From IMG/VR virus record IMGVR_UViG_3300034110_001129: 64,000 nucleotides of DNA, one strand, 5' to 3'. Source of the stretch: an uncultured virus (IMG/VR IMGVR_UViG_3300034110_001129). Its lineage: Duplodnaviria > Heunggongvirae > Uroviricota > Caudoviricetes. The position numbers and the translations under genes are program-made. Shown here one piece after another: positions 11,096 to 62,134 of this stretch (its first letter is position 1; each line of letters opens with the position of its first letter). The notes below the pieces were generated by a model. That model was not told the DNA's origin, did not search any database, and worked only from the letters and a program-made list of their open reading frames with translations.

Positions 11096-11737
11096 TTAAG
11101 GTTTAAATTTTGGTTTTGCTTGAACAGTGTCTAGTTTTTCATCAACCTTGACAGCAGGTGGTATGAAGATATTGTTCAAGTAGAATTTTAACTCTTTGAT
11201 AGATTGCTGAATATCATCAAGACCTCTATGCTTGTTAGGCTTTTCAAGTTTGGCTGCAATCTCTGGATATTGTCTCCATGCCACTTCCTTAAAACTACTC
11301 ACATCTATTTTACGGTAATGCAGCATCTTCGCAAAAGTTGGCATCTGAGCATTAATAAAATTCTTGTCAAACCCAACATTATTACCACAAATTGGACTAG
11401 ATCCCGGTGCAATGTTGAAATCTTTGACATAATCCAACATCATTTGTTCAGCCATCGCTAATGAAAATGGTGAAACTTTTATCTTATCAAGCAATCCATT
11501 TTTGGTATGCATATCTTTAACGTAATCATTCATCAATGCTAGTAAATCAGCTTCTTTATGATGAATAACAATTTCGAAACCTTTATCAATAATGTTATAG
11601 TTAGCATCAGTAATGTGCATGCCTACTTCAATAATTTTGTGTTTGTGAACACCTTGCATGCCATCAGCTTCATCAAGTCCAGTAGTCTCTAAGTCAACCC
11701 ATATAAGTAAATCCTTTCTTAATTCTGTTGGTTCCAT
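11096..11737 (-). CDS. orn: Oligoribonuclease (DEDDh)
   Basis: LIWVDLETTGL, MHTKNGLL, SPICGN.V.FD..F, HYR.IDVSS.KE and HR.LDDI..SI.EL..Y motifs; extra basic tail. Confidence 0.93.
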   Translation of the reverse strand: MEPTELRKDLLIWVDLETTGLDEADGMQGVHKHKIIEVGMHITDANYNIIDKGFEIVIHHKEADLLALMNDYVKDMHTKNGLLDKIKVSPFSLAMAEQMMLDYVKDFNIAPGSSPICGNNVGFDKNFINAQMPTFAKMLHYRKIDVSSFKEVAWRQYPEIAAKLEKPNKHRGLDDIQQSIKELKFYLNNIFIPPAVKVDEKLDTVQAKPKFKP

Positions 11738-27852: not shown

Positions 27853-28755
27853 TTATTGGTCAATGAGTAAGGTGTGAACTTTTAAATCATCACAAATTTC
27901 AATCATAGTTAAAGACCCTTGTTTGTTTTTCTTCATTCCATACACAGCTCCCGTATCTATAAAGAACTGATTACCTAATAGTAATGGTTTCTTAACAGGT
28001 GTGTGTCCATGAAAGGTATAGGCGATATTGTCGATATAACTTTTATGATGCAATTTTCGCTTAAATTTTTCGATAATATATCTGAATGAGAATGATATCC
28101 CATGCTTGATGTAAGGCAATGTTTTTCTAGTTGTAATGATTCTGTATAAGGTCGTTCTATTCCATAAGCCGTCTTTAATAAATTTGATGTAAGCTTTTCT
28201 GGCAAAGGCGGTGCCATTCTTTTTCAATTCTCTGTAAATACGTTTCCTACCCCATAACGCATCCCTAATCACGCTACCAGAATCATTAATAGAACTCATT
28301 TCATATGATAGGTTAGCTGCAGTGAGATAGTGTTTGAACTCATTCCAGTCATTGAACTGGGTAGGGACTTGGGCATGAACCAATCCAATAGGGCCAAGAC
28401 TGGTTTCTATTTCAATAGCAATCGGTAACGTCTTGATAATGTCCAGACATTTTTCTTTTTCTTTCTTGCTTAAGTGAGTAACCCAATCCTTTGAATACGA
28501 TAAATGACCAGTGAGCAGCATGGTTTCATGATTACCTAATACAGCAAAAAACCAACTCTGGTTATTGAGATATAGAACTTCCAGTGATTTTGGGCCACGA
28601 TCTATTAAATCACCCACAGAAAATAATCTATCAATGTTTTTATCGAAGTTGACGGATTCGAGAAGTTTCATTAATGAGTCATACATACCATGTATATCCC
28701 CCACAATGAAGTCTCTGCCTTTTTCATTTTTTGCAAATGATTGTAATTGATACAT
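27853..28755 (-). CDS. PphA/lambda-NinI-like Ser/Thr protein phosphatase (metallophosphoesterase)
   Basis: GDIHG, GDLIDRGP.S, GNHE, HGHTP and IDTGA motifs; basic insertion of about 70 aa before the HGHTP motif. Confidence 0.9.
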   Translation of the reverse strand: MYQLQSFAKNEKGRDFIVGDIHGMYDSLMKLLESVNFDKNIDRLFSVGDLIDRGPKSLEVLYLNNQSWFFAVLGNHETMLLTGHLSYSKDWVTHLSKKEKEKCLDIIKTLPIAIEIETSLGPIGLVHAQVPTQFNDWNEFKHYLTAANLSYEMSSINDSGSVIRDALWGRKRIYRELKKNGTAFARKAYIKFIKDGLWNRTTLYRIITTRKTLPYIKHGISFSFRYIIEKFKRKLHHKSYIDNIAYTFHGHTPVKKPLLLGNQFFIDTGAVYGMKKNKQGSLTMIEICDDLKVHTLLIDQ

Positions 28756-28892
28756 TAAACAGACCTTTTCTAGTTTATTTTAATATCTTATGATATTTTT
28801 AAGGATTGGTCTACAAGAATGTTTTGAATTAATAAGATTTGAGTGGTTTTAAATAAATTGAAAACAAAAAAAGAACAACATTGCGTTGTTCT

Positions 28893-29291
28893 TTAAACTT
28901 TTGAAGTGAGCTTTTGCTGATTCCCCATGAAACTTTTCAAAGTGTTATTGACGTTTACGGTTCTTCGCCCGTCAAGATCTTTAGAGTTATAAACATAATA
29001 ATTACCATCACCATCTAAAATAAAAATTTCATCAACTTTTTTAGCATCAATTTTTTTCACAACTTTATTCCAAGATTGATTGCCACCAGTAGTCCCTAGT
29101 GCAACTTGGTAAGATTTTTCATTATCTTTATATCGAGAACTTTTACACTCAACCTTCTTTAATACACCATCGGTATCAACAATCAAGTCGTAATAAGGGG
29201 AATGAGTTAATGGCTTACTGACAATACATCCTAGTGATGTATAATAAAAGGTTGCAAACGATTCACATGTGTCACCTTGCTCTTTATTCAT
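28893..29291 (-). CDS. PD-(D/E)XK endonuclease, homing-endonuclease-like
   Basis: QGD..E, VS.P......YDLIVD.....KVECKS pattern of intron-associated PD-(D/E)XK nucleases; start at MNKEQG after GAGG. Confidence 0.75.
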   Translation of the reverse strand: MNKEQGDTCESFATFYYTSLGCIVSKPLTHSPYYDLIVDTDGVLKKVECKSSRYKDNEKSYQVALGTTGGNQSWNKVVKKIDAKKVDEIFILDGDGNYYVYNSKDLDGRRTVNVNNTLKSFMGNQQKLTSKV

Positions 29292-29307
29292 AGGAACCTC
29301 TCGAAGA

Positions 29308-29358
29308 TGGTGGGTAGTGGACATCTGCTTCTATAAATAAAAACAAACCCTTCTCCCC
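29308..29358 (-). ncRNA. Putative CCA-ended tRNA minihelix or degenerate tRNA
   Basis: GGGGAGAAGGGUUUGUUUUUAUUUAUAGAAGCAGAUGUCCACUACCC-A-CCA folds as one long hairpin; begins 6 nt after the last tRNA. Confidence 0.4.
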
Positions 29359-29364
29359 ATAATT

Positions 29365-29452
29365 TGGCGGAAGCTGTGGGATTCGAACTCACGGGGCTTT
29401 TACACCCGACAGTTTTCAAGACTGTTGCCTTAAACCACTCGGCCAAGCTTCC
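29365..29452 (-). tRNA. tRNA-Ser(UGA)
   Basis: GGAAGCT acceptor stem, ACAGT-CTTGAAA-ACTGT anticodon arm, long variable arm, TTCGAAT T-loop, G73 and encoded CCA. Confidence 0.95.
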
Positions 29453-29473
29453 ATATACGGTTTACAACTAATT

Positions 29474-29562
29474 TGGTGGACTACCAAGGATTCGAACCTC
29501 ACGCCGACCGACCCATCTTATTAAGGCGTCGCTTTTACAGAGCGATGACAGGAAAGTAGTCC
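29474..29562 (-). tRNA. Atypical tRNA-Tyr(GUA) lacking a D-arm, with a 27-nt variable region
   Basis: GGACTAC/GTAGTCC acceptor, only 10 nt before TCGCT-CTGTAAA-AGCGA, TGAGG-TTCGAAT-CCTTG T-arm, A73 and CCA. Confidence 0.8.
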
Positions 29563-29590
29563 ATATTATTCTTACTATTACATCTAAATT

Positions 29591-29674
29591 TGGTGAGGGG
29601 TGATGGATTCGAACCACCGTGTCTTTCGATCAGAGTTTACAGCCCCGTGCAATCGGCCACTATGCGAACCCCCC
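29591..29674 (-). tRNA. tRNA-Tyr(GUA)
   Basis: Cloverleaf, CGGGG-CTGTAAA-CTCTG anticodon arm, A73 and CCA. Confidence 0.92.
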
Positions 29675-29700
29675 ATAATAAAACAGGTTACATCTAAATT

Positions 29701-29788
29701 TGGCGGAAGCTGTGGGATTCGAACTCACGGAGCTGTTACACTCGACAGTTTTCAAGACTGTTGCCTTAAACCACTCGGCCAAGCTTCC
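29701..29788 (-). tRNA. tRNA-Ser(UGA)
   Basis: Near-identical to 29365-29452 except in the variable arm; CCA encoded. Confidence 0.95.
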
Positions 29789-29809
29789 ATATACTATTTA
29801 CATCTAATT

Positions 29810-29893
29810 TGGTGGTTAGTGATGGATTCGAACCACCGTGCCTTTCGGATTGGATTTACAGTCCAACGCAATCAACCGCTCTGCCAACTAACC
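29810..29893 (-). tRNA. tRNA-Tyr(GUA)
   Basis: GGTTAGT/ACTAACC acceptor, TTGGA-CTGTAAA-TCCAA, A73 and CCA. Confidence 0.93.
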
Positions 29894-29925
29894 ATAAGGG
29901 TTTTACATATTTTTTTAGTAAAATC

Positions 29926-30009
29926 TGGTGGGTGCTGATGGATTCGAACCACCGCGTCTCTCGAAGTCGGTTTACAGCCGACCGCATTCGGCCACTCTGC
30001 CAAACACCC
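29926..30009 (-). tRNA. tRNA-Tyr(GUA)
   Basis: GGGTGTT/AGCACCC acceptor, GTCGG-CTGTAAA-CCGAC, A73 and CCA. Confidence 0.93.
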
Positions 30010-30031
30010 ATAATACAGTTACAACTAAATT

Positions 30032-30119
30032 TGGAGGAAGATGTGAGATTCGAACTCACGGAGCTATTACACCCTTCAGTTTTCAAGACTGACGCCATCG
30101 GCCACTCGACCAATCTTCC
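30032..30119 (-). tRNA. tRNA-Ser(UGA), U73 discriminator
   Basis: GGAAGAT/ATCTTCC acceptor, TCAGT-CTTGAAA-ACTGA, long variable arm, U-CCA end. Confidence 0.93.
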
Positions 30120-30174
30120 ATTTGTATTACTAAGAAGAGTTTTTCGTTTTGCTTCTCAACTCTTCATGTTTAAC

Positions 30175-30203
30175 ATTCTATCAACTTCTTTCGTCTTTGT
30201 CAA
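30175..30203 (-). promoter_or_regulatory. Proximal sigma70 promoter of the tRNA array
   Basis: TTGACA-17bp-TAGAAT with TG extension and an A-rich UP-like region. Confidence 0.8.
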
Positions 30204-30240
30204 CAACTATTTTAATTTATTTTCACTTATTTTGCTTTTA

Positions 30241-30253
30241 AATCAATAACTTA
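30241..30253 (+). promoter_or_regulatory. IHF-consensus site
   Basis: AATCAATAACTTA matches WATCAANNNNTTR; lies between the attenuator and the proximal promoter. Confidence 0.45.
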
Positions 30254-30293
30254 CATTATTTTAGGTTGAACTTAACCCTGCCACTATGGACAT

Positions 30294-30326
30294 AAAAAAA
30301 CCCTTCGAAGGTGGCCTTCAAAGGGT
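30294..30326 (-). terminator. Attenuator terminator hairpin
   Basis: ACCCTTTGAAGG-CCA-CCTTCGAAGGGT 12-bp stem running into a T7 tract. Confidence 0.88.
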
Positions 30327-30382
30327 CTAAGATAATTACTATCCAAGAATTCGAGGCCATAACTGACCTCTACTCTGGTCAG

Positions 30383-30433
30383 TTAACTAGAATATGATGA
30401 ATAATAATAGGATACAGCAAATGTAGGTTTCAT
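30383..30433 (-). CDS. Leader peptide MKPTFAVSYYYSSYSS
   Basis: ATG AAA CCT ACA TTT GCT GTA TCC TAT TAT TAT TCA TCA TAT TCT AGT TAA; GGAG RBS at 30443-30446; own promoter. Confidence 0.82.
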   Translation of the reverse strand: MKPTFAVSYYYSSYSS

Positions 30434-30467
30434 TTTGTATTTCTCCAAAAAGTAAATAATATTAACC

Positions 30468-30496
30468 ATTATAACAGCCCGCTCAAAAAAATTCAA
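30468..30496 (-). promoter_or_regulatory. Sigma70 promoter of the leader/attenuator
   Basis: TTGAAT-17bp-TATAAT with TG extension. Confidence 0.8.
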
Positions 30497-30509
30497 GCGG
30501 TATGTTGGT

Positions 30510-31433
30510 TTATTTAAAATTGTTTCGCGTTGGATCGTTGGCTGCAGCTTCAATATCTTTAAACTGAGTGCTGTTAAGTTTTTCTCGAAAGATATCATCA
30601 AGCGTTGCATTATAGCTTAAAGGTTTTAATGCAGTAATCACTCGCTGAGTACAACTATCAACACAACGAACTTTCCAGAAATAAGCGTTTTCGAAATCGT
30701 TTATTTCGAGGTAAGCGGATACTATATCGAAAGCTACATTCTTATTTTTAGGATACAGTTTTTGGTAGTATTCTACCGCTTTGGCTGTATTTTTAGGGTA
30801 TACAAATCCTTTTCTGTATTGATAACCATAGAGAAGAATAATGTCTTCATCAATAGGCTCACCTACGGATACATTTTCAGCCAGTCTTTTAAAATCGTCT
30901 GCATATTGAATCTGTAGCTTATCTACCTGAGCCATCAGTGTCAAGTCATCTTCAAAGTAAGGCTTTTTAGCTTCATAGAGTTCAATAAATGCTTTTTTGT
31001 TGCCAGTCTTTAATGAAAGATCCAAATAATTGAATAAATTAGTTAAAGCTTCTTTCTTTTTAGGTAAAGTGCCAACATAGTCGTAACTTCCATAATATTG
31101 AGCATTTCCAAAAGGTTCTTCTAATCTCACTTTCACTAAAAATTTGTTTTGTTTAATAATGAAAGGCTTGTCTGGAATTTGATAGACAATGGGTTCTCGA
31201 TTGGCATCCGCTCCATAATAAGCTTTAACTAATAAAGCGTAGGCATCATAAGGATCTTTTTGTTGTTTCGCTTCTTTAAGCGTATTGCCTAACACACCAT
31301 CAAAATAATCAGTGGCCTTTACAACATCGCCTCGCTCCAAAATTTTACTGCGATCTATTTTAGGTTCGGAATCGCCACAACCATTTAAGAAAGCTATCAG
31401 TAAAGCTCCCACTACATACTTCATATATCGCAT
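30510..31433 (-). CDS. Lipoprotein with a Sel1/TPR-like C-terminal segment
   Basis: Lipobox LNGC; YG..Y..G..YPKN..KA.EYY and AYFW pattern. Confidence 0.65.
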   Translation of the reverse strand: MRYMKYVVGALLIAFLNGCGDSEPKIDRSKILERGDVVKATDYFDGVLGNTLKEAKQQKDPYDAYALLVKAYYGADANREPIVYQIPDKPFIIKQNKFLVKVRLEEPFGNAQYYGSYDYVGTLPKKKEALTNLFNYLDLSLKTGNKKAFIELYEAKKPYFEDDLTLMAQVDKLQIQYADDFKRLAENVSVGEPIDEDIILLYGYQYRKGFVYPKNTAKAVEYYQKLYPKNKNVAFDIVSAYLEINDFENAYFWKVRCVDSCTQRVITALKPLSYNATLDDIFREKLNSTQFKDIEAAANDPTRNNFK

Positions 31434-31446
31434 AGACGACTCCTAA

Positions 31447-31674
31447 TTAAGATAATTTCCAAGTGGTGACTTTTTCAACAGGTTCCATCAACAATTCTTT
31501 GCCAGAAATAATTCTAAAAACAGGATTGGTACATTCATCGTTTAGTTCCGCTTCAAATTGTTCCTTAAATTTGATAACATCTTCTTCTGATGAAAATGAA
31601 CTGAGTTTATATGTTGGCGAGTAAGAAGAATCATAATTGTCAGGTGAAACGTAGCCATGATAAACATAATACAT
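31447..31674 (-). CDS. Small hypothetical protein
   Basis: 75 aa with AGGAG RBS. Confidence 0.65.
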   Translation of the reverse strand: MYYVYHGYVSPDNYDSSYSPTYKLSSFSSEEDVIKFKEQFEAELNDECTNPVFRIISGKELLMEPVEKVTTWKLS

Positions 31675-31756
31675 AATATTACTCCTATAGAAAAGTTGTT
31701 TAAAATAATAAACTGTATGACCATTTTTGTCAATTATTAAATAATATTCATCATGT

Positions 31757-32539
31757 TTAAATCATATACATAGACAACAAATCAACTTTACCAGAAAGCT
31801 GTTCGCGTGGGTACAAGATGAGTTCTTGTCGAATACCATCATCATCGTCTAATTCATTAAGAATATAATTATCAATGTATTCATCAACAAAGACATCACC
31901 ATGATATTCTGCGTTAAAGACTTCATTGTTTTCGAAAAAGTCTTCGAAGTAAATTTCTTCTTTACGAATACGGTAAATAGTTTGATTATAAATATTGAAC
32001 GCAAACTTATGTTCGTTTCTTTGATGTTCAAACAAAGTAATAGTAGGAACCATTAGAATATTGCCATCTCTTGTAAGTTTAAAATTATTTTCAAAATAAT
32101 AACGAAAATAACTCTTTGATATTTTAGTAATAAAGAACGATGGTGTGCTGCTAGGATATACCAAAGGCAACTTAAATAAAGAACCTTCTTTCTTGAAAGA
32201 AAACATATCATTATTAGATAATTTATTATCAATATAAAACATCTTATTAAAATTAGAGTTTGATTTCATCTGGTCAAAAAAATCAGTCACAATTTTAAAA
32301 TCACTGCGTTTCATTTTATTGATGGACAACAGTTTTTTAATTTCTGGAAGGTATTTGTTACTGGTTTTGATTGCAATAATTGAATTATTTATAATGGTGA
32401 AGTCAACAAATTGTTTGTCTTTGTTAAAAAAAGATTTGAAAAGAATAACATCATTAACATCATCAAATGTAAATGTGCTTTTCGGATAACGAGAAGTAAA
32501 GATATCACTGATAGATTGTTGCACATTATTCTTTTTCAT
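31757..32539 (-). CDS. Hypothetical protein related to 63602; shared C-terminal motif
   Basis: NF.LTRD..I..VPTI.LF and P...L..KVDLL.M..I shared with the 63602 ORF. Confidence 0.7.
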   Translation of the reverse strand: MKKNNVQQSISDIFTSRYPKSTFTFDDVNDVILFKSFFNKDKQFVDFTIINNSIIAIKTSNKYLPEIKKLLSINKMKRSDFKIVTDFFDQMKSNSNFNKMFYIDNKLSNNDMFSFKKEGSLFKLPLVYPSSTPSFFITKISKSYFRYYFENNFKLTRDGNILMVPTITLFEHQRNEHKFAFNIYNQTIYRIRKEEIYFEDFFENNEVFNAEYHGDVFVDEYIDNYILNELDDDDGIRQELILYPREQLSGKVDLLSMYMI

Positions 32540-38919: not shown

Positions 38920-39384
38920 TTAACTCCTTAATAGTTCAAAGCGAGCAATGAATTCGTCAACAACAACAGGTTTAAGGCCATTCTCGCAAAAAAATAACTC
39001 GGGTGTATTATACCAAATATTGGCATTGTCGTCAATCGCTATCCATAATCCATCATAATTCTGTGTAGTTAACCACTCTTGTGCTTCACGAAAACGACTA
39101 CCATCACTGTTTTCATAATGGTTAGGGGTAATACCTACAATCATTGACTGAATATGTTTAGAGAATGGAGCTTTGAGTTGATCGAATGTTTTATTATCAC
39201 GCCAAGTGCTTGAAATAACAATTTTAAAATTAACAGTGTCTTCGAACGTATTAATAAAGCGTTCAAATTCTGGTATAAAGTAGAAGAATTGATTTTCTTC
39301 ATCAGTGCTATTTTCATCCGGCCAGAAAAAATGAAGAACTCCATCAAAGTCCAAAAACAAAACACAATCTTTTTTAATCATCAT
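38920..39384 (-). CDS. HAD-domain protein (Swiss-army-knife RNA-repair HAD type)
   Basis: LFLDFDGV, IVISSTWR, G.TP, R..E...W and AIDD motifs. Confidence 0.82.
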   Translation of the reverse strand: MMIKKDCVLFLDFDGVLHFFWPDENSTDEENQFFYFIPEFERFINTFEDTVNFKIVISSTWRDNKTFDQLKAPFSKHIQSMIVGITPNHYENSDGSRFREAQEWLTTQNYDGLWIAIDDNANIWYNTPELFFCENGLKPVVVDEFIARFELLRS

Positions 39385-40217: not shown

Positions 40218-40646
40218 TTAAAGAGCGTTCAGCTTCTCTTCTAAAATGCCGATTTCACGCTCTTGAAACTTATCATGACACCAAACAAGCTGAGAGACGC
40301 GATCCCATGCGTAATGGTCATCATCAAGGGCAAACCAAGCAGAGTTCATATCATTCTGAGCACGCCATTGTTCAGCTTCTTCCAAACGAACGCCATCGCC
40401 AGTAGTATTCAAAACCGGAGTAACGCCGACCAGTTTAAGAGCAATATCTGGAGAGAAGAATTTTGAGATTTGAGACAAGGTATATTCACGACGCCAAGTG
40501 CTGCTAATCACAAGCTTAAAGTCAAAACGGTCACTGTGCTTACGAATAAAATTTTCAAAATTAGGGAGATCAATGAATTTCAAGCCATTACTCATCAATG
40601 GGTGAAAGACACCATCAAAATCTAGAAACAACACAACACTTTTCAT
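40218..40646 (-). CDS. HAD-domain protein (paralog of 38920)
   Basis: LFLDFDGV, LVISSTWR, GVTP and ALDD motifs. Confidence 0.82.
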   Translation of the reverse strand: MKSVVLFLDFDGVFHPLMSNGLKFIDLPNFENFIRKHSDRFDFKLVISSTWRREYTLSQISKFFSPDIALKLVGVTPVLNTTGDGVRLEEAEQWRAQNDMNSAWFALDDDHYAWDRVSQLVWCHDKFQEREIGILEEKLNAL

Positions 40647-49867: not shown

Positions 49868-50776
49868 CTACTGAATGTGACCTTCATGTTTCAAAATCAT
49901 AAACTGAGCAACTTTAACAGCGTCTTCAAGTTCACCTCTAAACATCGTGATAAAGGCACCTTTATGACAGAAAAACAAACCCTTAATACCAGAGGCTTTT
50001 TCAAGTTCTTCTCCACTCAGTCCAAGCCATTCTTGTGGAGCTGGAACTCGTTTAGAATAGTCATCATTAACGGTTAATGGAACAGTTTCAATGGCCCATG
50101 CTCCCTTACTGTGTGGATAGATAACCATTTTTTTATCTGGCAAGTGTGCCACACGTTTTGCAGCGTCTTTTATATTGCTTGTACATACTACAATGTTTTT
50201 GTATTTTTCACTATTTTTAATAGCTTTAGCAATCGCTTTTTCAGCTTTCATGTTGCCACGAACATAAACAAAATAGTTGATAAAATGAGATTTAGCTGGC
50301 TTAAGTGCCATCATAAACTGTTTATCTTGTTCGCGTGGGTCATCAGGCTTACGGTTATACATGACCAAGAAATTACAATCACTGAATTTGGCAATTCCAT
50401 TGTCTTGCATATCAACACGACGAATGAATTCTTGTTCCAACACATTCATTGTTTCATCATTCATTTTGCCGTTAAGATATTTGTTGGCACGCAACCATTT
50501 CCATACCATACCACAAGACGACAGTGGCAGACCATCATCCCAGCAAAGGCTAGAATCATTCTGGTGATGATCGAAATTCCGCATAGCTGGATCATATTTC
50601 AAACCTACATCAACCACAAAGGTATCCTGTTCAGCTTGACCAGACTCAATAATGGCTTTATCCCGAGTGCGAATTAATTCAAATTTTTGTCCATCAAATA
50701 CATAAAGAGACAAAAGGGCAACAGCCATCAATTCATCAAGGTGAAATTGTTGAGAATGGGTGATTACTTTAAACAT
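49868..50776 (-). CDS. MYG1 (UPF0160) family exonuclease
   Basis: THS..FH.DE..A, IRTRD, VDVG..YDP....FDHHQ, SS.G.VW, D..DNG, P.EW.GL and FCH...F motifs. Confidence 0.88.
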   Translation of the reverse strand: MFKVITHSQQFHLDELMAVALLSLYVFDGQKFELIRTRDKAIIESGQAEQDTFVVDVGLKYDPAMRNFDHHQNDSSLCWDDGLPLSSCGMVWKWLRANKYLNGKMNDETMNVLEQEFIRRVDMQDNGIAKFSDCNFLVMYNRKPDDPREQDKQFMMALKPAKSHFINYFVYVRGNMKAEKAIAKAIKNSEKYKNIVVCTSNIKDAAKRVAHLPDKKMVIYPHSKGAWAIETVPLTVNDDYSKRVPAPQEWLGLSGEELEKASGIKGLFFCHKGAFITMFRGELEDAVKVAQFMILKHEGHIQ

Positions 50777-55412: not shown

Positions 55413-56672
55413 CTAGGCGGGCTTTTTAATCAATCGAAACTCTCGTTTACCTCGTTGGAATACTGCAAATTTTCCAAACTTGAAATCTGTAATTTCAAGA
55501 GCATTCATTTCTTCTTCACTGGCAATCAACTTATTACCGTTGACTTGAACCGCACCACTCTGGATAAATTCACGGCCTTGTCGTTTAGACTTCGCCAACC
55601 CAGTCGCTACCATCAAATCCAACACGTTCAACGTTTCTGGAACAACCGCTACCATGCCATTTTTTTCAAGACTTGCAAAATCATCTTCTTGCAAGCTATC
55701 AAAGTTATTGTCAAACAACGCTTTGATGTTACGCAACACTGAATCAAGTGCCGCTTGACCATGAACAATAACGGTCAGTTCTTCAGCCAACATCTGCTGA
55801 GCCAATGGTTTTGTGCGTTCCTTATCAGCTTCAAGGATAGCGTCAATTTCTTCAATAGACTTAAACGACAGCATTTTAAAGAACTTTGGAATATCCGCAT
55901 CTGCCACTTTCAACCAAAACTGGAAGAAATCAAAAGGACTTGTCATATCGGCTGACAACCATACAGCACCACTCTCACTCTTACCAAACTTGGTACCATC
56001 TGCCTTAGTCAACAACGGCATAGTCAACCCTGTTGCCACAACATCATTACCTTCCTTACGGTGAATAAGATCAATACCAGCCGTAATGTTACCCCACTGA
56101 TCGCTACCACCTAATTGAAGACGGCAGTTTTTCTCTTTCAGCAAGTGATGGAAGTCCATTGACTGCAGGAGCTGGTATGAGAATTCGGTAAAAGAAATCC
56201 CTTGGTCATCACGTTCCAAACGGCTACGCACTGAATCTTTGCTCATCATTGAATTCACTGAGAAATGCTTACCAACATCACGAAGAAAGTCAATAATAGA
56301 CAAGTTAACAGTCCAATCATGGTTATCAACTAGCTCTACATCACCCAGAATGCCTTTGATTTGCCCTGCAATACCAGCTTTGAAGCGATTGACCGTAGCA
56401 GCATCATTCAACGTCCTTTCTTGTGCTTTAAAGCTAGGGTCACCAATCATGCCCGTAGCACCACCAATCAATGGGAATACAGTATGACCCGCTTTCTTAA
56501 ATCGAAGCATAGTAATCAATGGCAACAGGCTACCCACATGCAAAGATTCTGCAGTGGGGTCAAATCCGCAGTATAGCGACAAACCATTGTCCATCAGATC
56601 TGAAATCTTAGCTTCATCGGTCATTTGAGCAACGAGGCCACGTTGTTTGAGTTCTTGAATAAAAGCGTTCAT
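55413..56672 (-). CDS. tyrS: Tyrosyl-tRNA synthetase
   Basis: YCGFDPTA.SLHVG (HIGH), GGATGMIGDPS, ISFTEFSYQLLQ..D, GGSDQWGNI, KFGKS (KMSKS), C-terminal S4 domain; start at MNAF after GGAG. Confidence 0.97.
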   Translation of the reverse strand: MNAFIQELKQRGLVAQMTDEAKISDLMDNGLSLYCGFDPTAESLHVGSLLPLITMLRFKKAGHTVFPLIGGATGMIGDPSFKAQERTLNDAATVNRFKAGIAGQIKGILGDVELVDNHDWTVNLSIIDFLRDVGKHFSVNSMMSKDSVRSRLERDDQGISFTEFSYQLLQSMDFHHLLKEKNCRLQLGGSDQWGNITAGIDLIHRKEGNDVVATGLTMPLLTKADGTKFGKSESGAVWLSADMTSPFDFFQFWLKVADADIPKFFKMLSFKSIEEIDAILEADKERTKPLAQQMLAEELTVIVHGQAALDSVLRNIKALFDNNFDSLQEDDFASLEKNGMVAVVPETLNVLDLMVATGLAKSKRQGREFIQSGAVQVNGNKLIASEEEMNALEITDFKFGKFAVFQRGKREFRLIKKPA

Positions 56673-56768
56673 AATATTTTTCTCCACGAAAATTTAATTG
56701 TGTTTTGATGTGTAGCTGAATTTTAGTTAAATAGATAATGCCTCACGAGAGACATTGAGTGGAGAAGT

Positions 56769-56822
56769 TCAATATCGAACAGTGAAAGATTTTTGAAAGT
56801 GAAATGTATTTGAAGCGTTCAT
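56769..56822 (-). CDS. Possible leader peptide upstream of tyrS (MNASNTFHFQKSFTVRY)
   Basis: AAGGA RBS; lies between a TTGCTT-17-TAGAAT promoter (56861-56889) and tyrS; followed by an 8-bp hairpin. Confidence 0.45.
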   Translation of the reverse strand: MNASNTFHFQKSFTVRY

Positions 56823-61249: not shown

Positions 61250-62134
61250 TTAACGAATAGTTTCATTAGGGTGAGACATTGAGAACATTTTCTCAATGAA
61301 TTTACCTACGGCAGTTTCAAGCACGGCGTCAAGCCCGACCAACCCAGCAAGACCACCACTTTTTGCTTTCACTTCAGTGTTAACTTGATGAAGTTTGAAA
61401 CCTTCTTTAAACGCTTTCAAAATAGCTGTTCGGCTGTCACCGATTTCATCAACCAGTTTTTCAGCAACAACATCTTGTGCCATATAGAAATCACCTTCCA
61501 TCAGTTTTTCAGGATTAATATTTGGACGATACTTCAACACATGGTTTTTGAAAGCAGTATGAATTTCAACAAGCTTTTCTTTAAAAACTGCTTCTTGAGC
61601 TTCTGTTGGTGTCTTTGTAGGGACTACGGAACGTTTATTGGTGCCTGCAGTGTAAACTCGAACATCAATACCCACCTTATTCAAGACTTCTTCAAAAATA
61701 GGAACCTGAGAAACCACGCCGATAGATCCAACAAACGCAAAAGGTTGAGCAACAATGCGATCACACACGGAGGCCATCATATAACCACCACTAGCCGCAA
61801 CTTCATCTACGAAAGCAGTGACATGAAGACCGTGAGCACGAAGACGACTGATTTGTTGTGCAGCGTTTGCATAAGCAGTTACGCTACCACCGGGGCTTTT
61901 GATAATCATATATACGGCATCACCACGTTCCGAGTTAAGTACAGTCATGTCTACATCACGTTCTAGTTTTTCAAACGCATTGCCTTTATCTTCTGAGTTA
62001 AACCTAATGACAAAGATATTCTCATCTTTAGCGTTGGCTTTGATTTGACGACGAACTTCTTTACTGGCGATACTTTTAGTCAGTTCACGGTTCAGATCTT
62101 TGATTTCAGTTTTGAAACGAATTTCTTTAGACAT
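61250..62134 (-). CDS. sohB: S49 peptidase, SohB-like (no N-terminal TM in this ORF)
   Basis: SPGGSV..Y..AA.Q..RLR, VD.VAASGGYMMA.V, APF-like QPFA.VGSIGVV.Q.P, TAG..KR and H..FK..V..YRP motifs. Confidence 0.85.
   Translation of the reverse strand: MSKEIRFKTEIKDLNRELTKSIASKEVRRQIKANAKDENIFVIRFNSEDKGNAFEKLERDVDMTVLNSERGDAVYMIIKSPGGSVTAYANAAQQISRLRAHGLHVTAFVDEVAASGGYMMASVCDRIVAQPFAFVGSIGVVSQVPIFEEVLNKVGIDVRVYTAGTNKRSVVPTKTPTEAQEAVFKEKLVEIHTAFKNHVLKYRPNINPEKLMEGDFYMAQDVVAEKLVDEIGDSRTAILKAFKEGFKLHQVNTEVKAKSGGLAGLVGLDAVLETAVGKFIEKMFSMSHPNETIR

Follow-up and report, generated by a model that had tools for sequence, protein, structure and literature searches.

Leader-peptide attenuation is textbook knowledge for operons of amino-acid synthesis and for one synthetase operon. 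The thr leader senses threonine and isoleucine, the ilvGMEDA leader senses isoleucine, leucine and valine, and the his leader works as a relay of more than four segments. In the pheM-pheST operon of E. coli a leader peptide controls the expression of an aminoacyl-tRNA synthetase. According to the classical picture, attenuator leaders that are not translated terminate transcription. Here we describe a conserved leader found in a DNA stretch of 64,000 nucleotides from a giant uncultured virus (IMG/VR record IMGVR_UViG_3300034110_001129, Caudoviricetes). The whole stretch is referred to as the window. The leader lies in front of an array of tyrosine and serine tRNA genes, and a preceding examination of the sequence, called here the original prediction, had proposed that it senses shortage of these tRNAs by leader-peptide attenuation and controls their genes.

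The layout of the locus is the same as that of the thr and ilvGMEDA leaders: a promoter, a short open reading frame (ORF) in which codons for more than one amino acid follow each other, a first stem with the stop codon at its edge, mutually exclusive hairpins and an intrinsic terminator with a U tract. It differs from them in that tRNA genes and not biosynthetic enzymes lie downstream, in being viral, and in having a second promoter after the terminator. Moreover, by the predicted folds an untranslated leader would here be read through, whereas untranslated leaders of the classical type terminate. As in pheM-pheST, leader-peptide attenuation would act on a decoding component for the sensed amino acid; there, however, the synthetase is controlled and here the tRNA, and the tyrosyl-tRNA synthetase (TyrRS) encoded in the window has no such leader. 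The pheL attenuator is described in PMC3082878. The E. coli tRNA-Phe genes pheV and pheU were considered as a precedent and rejected, as no leader ORF was found before them.

The Rfam covariance model His_leader (RF00514) aligns with the hairpin before the terminator, the terminator and the U tract of the locus. The match reached 31.4 bits (E = 0.0018 on 321 nt) and thus stays below the gathering score, which is 49 bits, and the leader has no His codons; membership in this family was therefore rejected. Apart from this match, we detected no T-box or other Rfam cis-regulator at E <= 1 in positions 28000-32000. T-box riboswitches share the job proposed here, in that they read the supply of one tRNA and set the read-through of a terminator before translation-related genes, but they bind uncharged tRNA directly and without a ribosome, whereas the present leader would be read by the ribosome.

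Phage tRNAs also take part in counter-defence. The accessible parts of three reports deal with tRNA-Tyr of phage T5, which counters a retron effector, and with phage tRNAs that have changed anticodon loops (PMC11555353, 10.1101/2023.03.15.532788, PMC10264068). The phage studied here resembles such phages in carrying several divergent tRNA-Tyr genes. The accessible text of these reports concerns tRNA function and has no mention of expression regulated by a leader peptide. Our full-text literature searches found no published leader-peptide attenuator before tRNA genes, in agreement with the original prediction, which had known of none.

Results

The leader, the second promoter and the tRNA array all lie on the minus strand. 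The promoter, the ribosome binding site and the 16-codon ORF were found as had been predicted. The leader promoter, P1, reads TTGAAT-17-TGtTATAAT (30468..30496); it is of the extended -10 type, with 10 of the 12 hexamer bases and the TG present. Promoter-like hexamer matches were not enriched in the region (7 versus 6.4 +/- 2.6 in shuffled sequences), therefore the case for P1 comes from its conservation and not from the scan. A Shine-Dalgarno sequence, GGAG (30443..30446), is located 9 nt before the ATG. The leader ORF, MKPTFAVSYYYSSYSS plus TAA (30383..30433, 16 codons), ends with nine Ser/Tyr codons in a row, TCC TAT TAT TAT TCA TCA TAT TCT AGT (30386..30412). This predicted run was not only confirmed but proved to be far beyond chance. 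It is the sole run of at least nine in the six frames of the window, where the next longest has seven. From the codon frequencies of the window, approximately 0.0008 such runs are expected per window, and none was present in 200 Markov-1 random sequences. The codons name exactly the two isotypes of the downstream tRNA array.

We compared the leader with two loci from JGI metagenomes. The protein encoded next to the leader on its upstream side has 11 homologues, which are 41-93% identical; at locus L082 this flanking protein is 92% identical to that of the window, and at L083 it is 46% identical. The whole unit was present at both loci, and L083 lies on a different contig. The ORF of L082 differs from that of the window by one synonymous change, TTT>TTC. 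The leader of L083 encodes MKPTFKFSSSYYYSYSR. It keeps the TTG, TG and TATAAT of P1, the GGAG and, from the ATG on, the first five codons (MKPTF), and the pairing segment A described below still begins with the stop codon. The Shine-Dalgarno sequence is kept in both relatives, with a spacing of 10 nt. Both indels in the L083 ORF are in frame, one TCA being deleted (-3) and six bases being inserted further upstream (+6). The set of Ser/Tyr codons is that of the window (four TAT, two TCA, one each of TCC, TCT and AGT), in a different order. A 75-codon frame that encloses the leader was rejected as a gene: it is not kept in L083, where it opens after the stop codon of the upstream gene.

Between the window and L083, 89 of 92 bases were identical from the stop codon to the end of the T tract. 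The corresponding values were 22 of 29 for P1, 33 of 45 for the spacer after the terminator and 41 of 55 from the second promoter to the first tRNA. Two of the three differences between the stop codon and the T tract form a GA>AG swap in the 3' arm of the terminator. The same swap occurs in the metagenome runs X3 and X6, and in all three it preserves every terminator pair, through G-U.

Parts of the stretch were carried by 20 metagenome rows from 16 studies (lake water, soil, peat, wastewater, food and others). We compared contigs from four runs, three of DNA and one of RNA (X2, X3, X6 and X15), over positions 30100-30700, and each run had one contig over the leader. In X2, X6 and X15, for which all differences in the leader contigs were listed, none fell in the ORF or in the A-D stems. 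As the list leaves out 42 further differences, it accounts for the leader contig of X3 in part; no ORF or A-D change is among the X3 differences listed. Past the stop codon, the list gives the GA>AG swap for X3 and X6 and, for X3, a change of one base flanking the terminator stem. The TTG, TG and TATAAT of P1 were identical in L082, L083 and the four runs, and variation was confined to the spacer and the fifth base of the -35 hexamer. Single leader contigs from soil, peat and the RNA library have no listed change in the ORF or the A-D stems; the neighbouring upstream gene diverges. The contig of the RNA run X15 spans 30187-30378, across the terminator, although contigs show no transcript ends and DNA carry-over is possible. 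The leader codons and stems are kept in L082, L083 and, by the differences listed, in the run contigs, as the original prediction required of related genomes.

A search of IMG/VR by the flanking protein, by the peptide-level pattern, by a B-C 26-mer and by a 23-mer of the odd tRNA gene described below returned no relatives. Among the 81 IMG/VR loci with the peptide pattern, one had any tRNA (an unrelated tRNA-Arg) and none was leader-like. No relatives were found in GTDB species genomes by 20-mer or by protein alignment. The contig of L082 has 1,859,102 bases and that of L083 has 520,353. The former is, to our knowledge, far longer than any phage genome, and a misassembly, a concatemer or a cellular genome could lie behind it.

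The three alternative pairings were all present where they had been predicted and had favourable computed energies. Segment A (UAACUGACC, 30377..30385) has the stop codon as its first three bases. Segment B (GAGGUCAGUUA, 30360..30370) can pair either with A (30385-30377 with 30368-30360, 9 bp, -11.9 kcal/mol) or with segment C (UGGCCUCGAA, 30350..30359), as GAGGUCA with UGGCCUC (7 bp, -9.3 kcal/mol). As an antiterminator, C (30359-30350) can instead pair with segment D (30322-30312), which consists of the 5' arm and loop of the terminator (-11.4 kcal/mol). A further segment, UGGAUAGUAAU (30335..30345), has two partners: the Tyr/Ser codon run when the full-length RNA folds untranslated, and A in a fold called here form II. 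The intrinsic terminator (30294..30328) has a stem from 30328 to 30298 with a 3-nt loop and a T7 tract at 30300-30294. It was found as predicted, except that our scan counts 14 pairs in the stem and not 12. The scan detected no further terminator on the way from 30294 to the tRNAs. For the leader RNA we computed a folding energy of -45.3 kcal/mol (z = -4.9), which none of 200 shuffled sequences reached.

Further, we folded the RNA from the stop codon onward at growing lengths, with transcript length counted from window position 30440. Up to approximately 92 nt the best fold was A:B (-12.6 kcal/mol). At 95-122 nt it was form II, with B:C at the tip and A paired to 30345-30335 (-19.6 kcal/mol), at 125-137 nt it was A:B plus C:D (-29.7 kcal/mol), and from 140 nt it was form II plus the terminator (-39 kcal/mol). 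The succession was the same for L082 and L083. The proposed relay of A:B, B:C, C:D and terminator was reproduced in this way, and the extended form II would make it more robust than had been described. Findpath gave heuristic, direct-path estimates of the barriers: the step from A:B to form II has one of 15.1 kcal/mol, and that from form II to A:B plus C:D one of 13.9 kcal/mol. When the RNA was cut at the terminator loop, the best fold consisted of A:B and a long C:D hairpin that buries the 5' arm and loop of the terminator. Pairing of D with upstream sequence gained -9.8 kcal/mol, in comparison with -4.4 +/- 2.7 kcal/mol when the upstream 57 nt were shuffled 500 times; 3.8% of the shuffles reached -9.8 kcal/mol.

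These folds suggest that the RNA has two exclusive routes, the choice being set by whether or not A:B is melted early. As the stop codon lies inside A, a ribosome finishing the leader is positioned to melt A:B. In folds with masked segments, a ribosome held at codons 8-13 left A free; for a ribosome at codons 15-17, pairs spanning the ribosome were disregarded. In summary, the leader is real, conserved and probably translated, and it has a switchable terminator.

A second promoter, P2 (TTGACA-17-TAGAAT, 30175..30203), matches 11 of the 12 hexamer bases and has an A/T-rich upstream region. The original prediction had added as a caveat that a strong proximal promoter lies downstream of the terminator, and this caveat turned out to be stronger than it was put. 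P2 is conserved in L082 and L083. Recurrence was assessed by counting distinct contigs, and summed contig depth was not used as a copy number. P2-like sequence was found on 8-11 distinct contigs per run, versus one contig for the leader, and these contigs run on into differing downstream sequences, so that P2 is a recurrent promoter module. A few copies stay similar up to the T tract. The window holds one copy, which together with its A/T-rich upstream region spans 30150-30270. Since P2 serves the array independently, the attenuator can only modulate the array and cannot be its sole control. Read-through from P1 can add to transcription of the array or may interfere with P2. The 5' end of the P2 transcript may form a hairpin, GAAGAGU...ACUCUUC (30134..30165), whose sequence is conserved.

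The tRNA array (29365..30119) consists of Ser-UGA, Tyr-GUA, Tyr-GUA, Ser-UGA, Tyr-GUA, an odd Tyr-like gene and Ser-UGA. ARAGORN and Rfam agree on six canonical tRNAs, three Ser-UGA and three Tyr-GUA, the latter at 29926-30009, 29810-29893 and 29591-29674. Four Tyr-GUA and three Ser-UGA genes had been predicted; all the serine genes and three of the tyrosine genes stand, while the fourth tyrosine gene is non-canonical and lacks a D arm. This gene (29476..29562; L082 7655-7745; L083 7729-7819) combines a CU-GUA-AA anticodon loop with an acceptor stem, a T arm and an encoded CCA; a normal D arm is missing, and the extra arm is long, at approximately 27 nt. It was called neither by ARAGORN nor by the Rfam tRNA model. 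In L082 and L083, both partners of two acceptor-stem pairs differ from those of the window, so the gene encodes a genuine structured RNA, which might be a decoy or an unusual kind of tRNA.

Among the three canonical tRNA-Tyr genes the acceptor and anticodon stems are strongly divergent; of the three tRNA-Ser genes, two have almost the same sequence. The first tRNA-Ser (window 30032-30119; L083 7297-7489) has the anticodon UGA in the window and L082 and AGA in L083, a difference of one base, the gene being nearly identical elsewhere. A tRNA-Ser-GCU is present in L083 in addition, and the genes of the array follow another order in the window than in L082 and L083. A short stretch with a G run at its start and CCCACCA at its end (29300-29364, minus strand; L082 7963-8030) follows the final tRNA of the window; in the relatives it separates the final two tRNAs. 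Judged by its sequence, it might be what is left of a tRNA, or a mini tRNA-like element.

A PD-(D/E)XK endonuclease gene (28893..29324, minus strand; PF11645, 7.7e-12) directly follows the array and apparently shares its transcription unit. The next terminator past the array and this gene is at 28894-28870. On the other side of the leader, the gene of the flanking protein (307 residues, 30510-31433, minus strand) matched no Pfam or PHROG family. This protein and its 11 homologues have a hydrophobic N-terminus that ends in an invariant Cys19 and resembles a lipoprotein signal.

We scanned 65 ORFs of the window against Pfam and 32 against PHROGs. The DNA has a G+C content of 33%. Most of the 65 ORFs matched no Pfam family, and the recognisable genes are phage genes, including those for virion structural proteins (phrog_2155) and an S49-type head maturation protease (61250-62134). 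No close phage was found in GenBank at the DNA level, the matches being tRNA-sized only. The tRNA-Ser region of Yersinia phage fHe-Yen9-04 is laid out differently.

The TyrRS gene (55413-56687) belongs to the phage family phrog_9270, and its product is at best 48% identical to the TyrRS proteins of Rak2-like jumbo phages. The region upstream of it has no Tyr-rich leader and no terminator before TyrRS. A second attenuator at this gene was considered and rejected, because the upstream 17-codon ORF (56769-56822, minus strand) has neither a Tyr run nor a terminator. This ORF stands behind a promoter of the TAGAAT type, and its ribosome-binding context resembles that of the leader. In the proteome of the window Tyr makes up 4.7% and Ser 7.5% of residues, most often encoded by TAT and TCA, respectively.

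Two HAD_SAK_2 ('Swiss Army Knife' RNA repair) domains are encoded in the window (38920-39384 and 40218-40646), together with a calcineurin-like phosphoesterase (27853-28755), for which a PHROG with RNA ligase annotation also came up, an RNase T-like exonuclease (11096-11737) and a MYG1 exonuclease (49868-50776), all on the minus strand. These five genes may form an RNA-repair set. The codon usage, the TyrRS, the divergent tRNA-Tyr genes and the genes of RNA-repair type fit a supply motive and a counter-defence motive alike.

Discussion

We favour, with moderate confidence, the explanation that the leader driven by P1 is translated and works as a ribosome-read transcription attenuator for the Tyr/Ser tRNA array. 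Most likely, the switch modulates an array that also owns a promoter. The A:B hairpin would be the first to form on the P1 transcript. If it lasted until D emerges, C would pair with D and the terminator could not nucleate; P1 transcripts would then pass P2 into the Tyr/Ser array and the nuclease gene behind it. A:B would persist when the ribosome is delayed at the early Ser/Tyr codons, approximately codons 8-13, with charged tRNA-Tyr or tRNA-Ser in short supply. A ribosome that reads smoothly would reach the stop codon, and thereby the first bases of A, and A:B would melt. B would then pair with C, and after release of the ribosome the extended form II hairpin would follow, leaving D free, so that the terminator would end the transcript at approximately 30294. 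The outcome would be a negative feedback, in which extra transcription of the array is added to that from P2 when the codons decoded by the array are read slowly. The levels of the tRNAs may change with it.

A number of findings agree with this explanation. The locus contains a promoter and a short ORF with a ribosome binding site and a start codon, a run of codons cognate to the array, and an intrinsic terminator. The computed folds contain an antiterminator that is exclusive with the terminator, and a counter-pairing to it, with the stop codon placed in A. High use of Tyr and Ser by the phage and its own TyrRS also count in favour, as do the conservation of the unit in L083, the sub-threshold His_leader alignment and the lack of another terminator before the tRNAs. 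In attenuated operons the genes depend on read-through and no promoter lies in between; here a promoter does.

Other findings weigh against the proposed attenuator, and this promoter is the first of them. The near-consensus P2 sits between the terminator and the tRNAs, so the tRNAs need no read-through, and the terminator could simply shield P2. Next, the terminator is present in every full-length equilibrium fold, whichever segment the ribosome masks. Comparison of folds with and without masked segments had been suggested as a check, and it kept the terminator for every position of the ribosome. Such persistence at equilibrium is expected of attenuators and decides nothing. It had also been proposed that a ribosome at the stop codon frees the terminator. 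The exclusive folds needed for this exist, but truncated RNA continues to favour C:D at equilibrium even when a ribosome occupies the stop codon. Taken together, these folds mean that the switch must be kinetic. Termination after full translation would then hinge on kinetic trapping, as estimated by a heuristic only. A ribosome stalled at one of the last three Ser/Tyr codons would cover A just as a terminating one does, and the single change inside form II, U>A in L083, weakens this fold from -19.6 to -17.9 kcal/mol.

Comparison of relatives adds further points of this kind. Covariation of the stems had been proposed as a check and was not found: A:B, B:C and C:D are identical in all sequences compared. 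These sequences, three in full and four contig sets, represent one lineage only. The Shine-Dalgarno spacing of 9-10 nt is rather long, the leader codons AGU and UCC are not best matched by the tRNAs of the window, and only three of the four claimed tRNA-Tyr genes are canonical.

The locus could also be an insulator with an incidental small ORF, which we consider possible but doubtful. In that case the terminator would stop transcription from the upstream gene and from P1 before P2, which would be the actual promoter of the tRNAs, and the AU-rich UAUUAUUAUUCA would be kept for pairing with UGGAUAGUAAU and not for decoding. P2 is strong, conserved and recurrent, and some of its copies stay similar up to the T tract; the upstream lipoprotein-like gene has no other terminator after it. 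In full-length folds of both the window and L083, 30345-30335 is indeed paired with the codon run, and the terminator is there in every equilibrium fold. However, an insulator leaves unexplained why the Shine-Dalgarno sequence, the ATG and MKPTF are conserved, why the stop codon is fixed inside A and why both indels are in frame. It also does not account for the Ser codons of L083, which were lost in one place and regained elsewhere with the set unchanged, or for leader amino acids that are exactly the two of the array. Nor does a plain insulator need 92 near-invariant bases with two exclusive folding paths.

In another alternative, the leader would be a real ribosome-read sensor with a different output. 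The terminated RNA of approximately 165 nt or the 16-residue peptide would act in trans, or read-through from P1 would occlude P2, so that stalling lowers expression of the array. P1 and the terminator indeed delimit a compact unit of approximately 165 nt that is conserved as a whole, and P2 lies approximately 90 nt past the terminator, where read-through polymerases cross it. Trans-acting functions of the RNA and the peptide of the Sinorhizobium trp attenuator are reported in the preprint 10.1101/606483. We regard such an output as clearly unlikely, as we identified no target or partner and no match to an Rfam sRNA family, and the match of the codons to the adjacent array is most simply explained by control in cis.

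Chance, that is a low-complexity AT-rich open stretch close to a terminator, would suit a genome of 33% G+C in which TAT and TCA repeats are simple sequence, but it is highly improbable given the 0.0008 Ser/Tyr runs of nine expected per window, the conservation of the unit across a flank of 46% identity and the folding z-score of -4.9.

On a wider scale, large phages might gate their tRNA arrays with codon-matched leader peptides, gauge from ribosome speed the decoding of their own codons and thereby replenish exactly the scarce tRNAs, whether scarcity comes from their own demand or from a host nuclease acting on tRNA-Tyr or tRNA-Ser. The divergent tRNA-Tyr genes, the gene without a D arm, the TyrRS and the genes of RNA-repair type would then belong to one counter-defence toolkit. 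We offer this idea as a speculation that is rather improbable as it stands. The leader itself could serve as a compact natural sensor of the availability of tRNA-Tyr and tRNA-Ser. If the proposed attenuation is true, it would give a simple, testable handle on the reasons why phages encode certain tRNAs and on when these are needed, and it would mean that a virus closes a feedback loop on decoding capacity itself.

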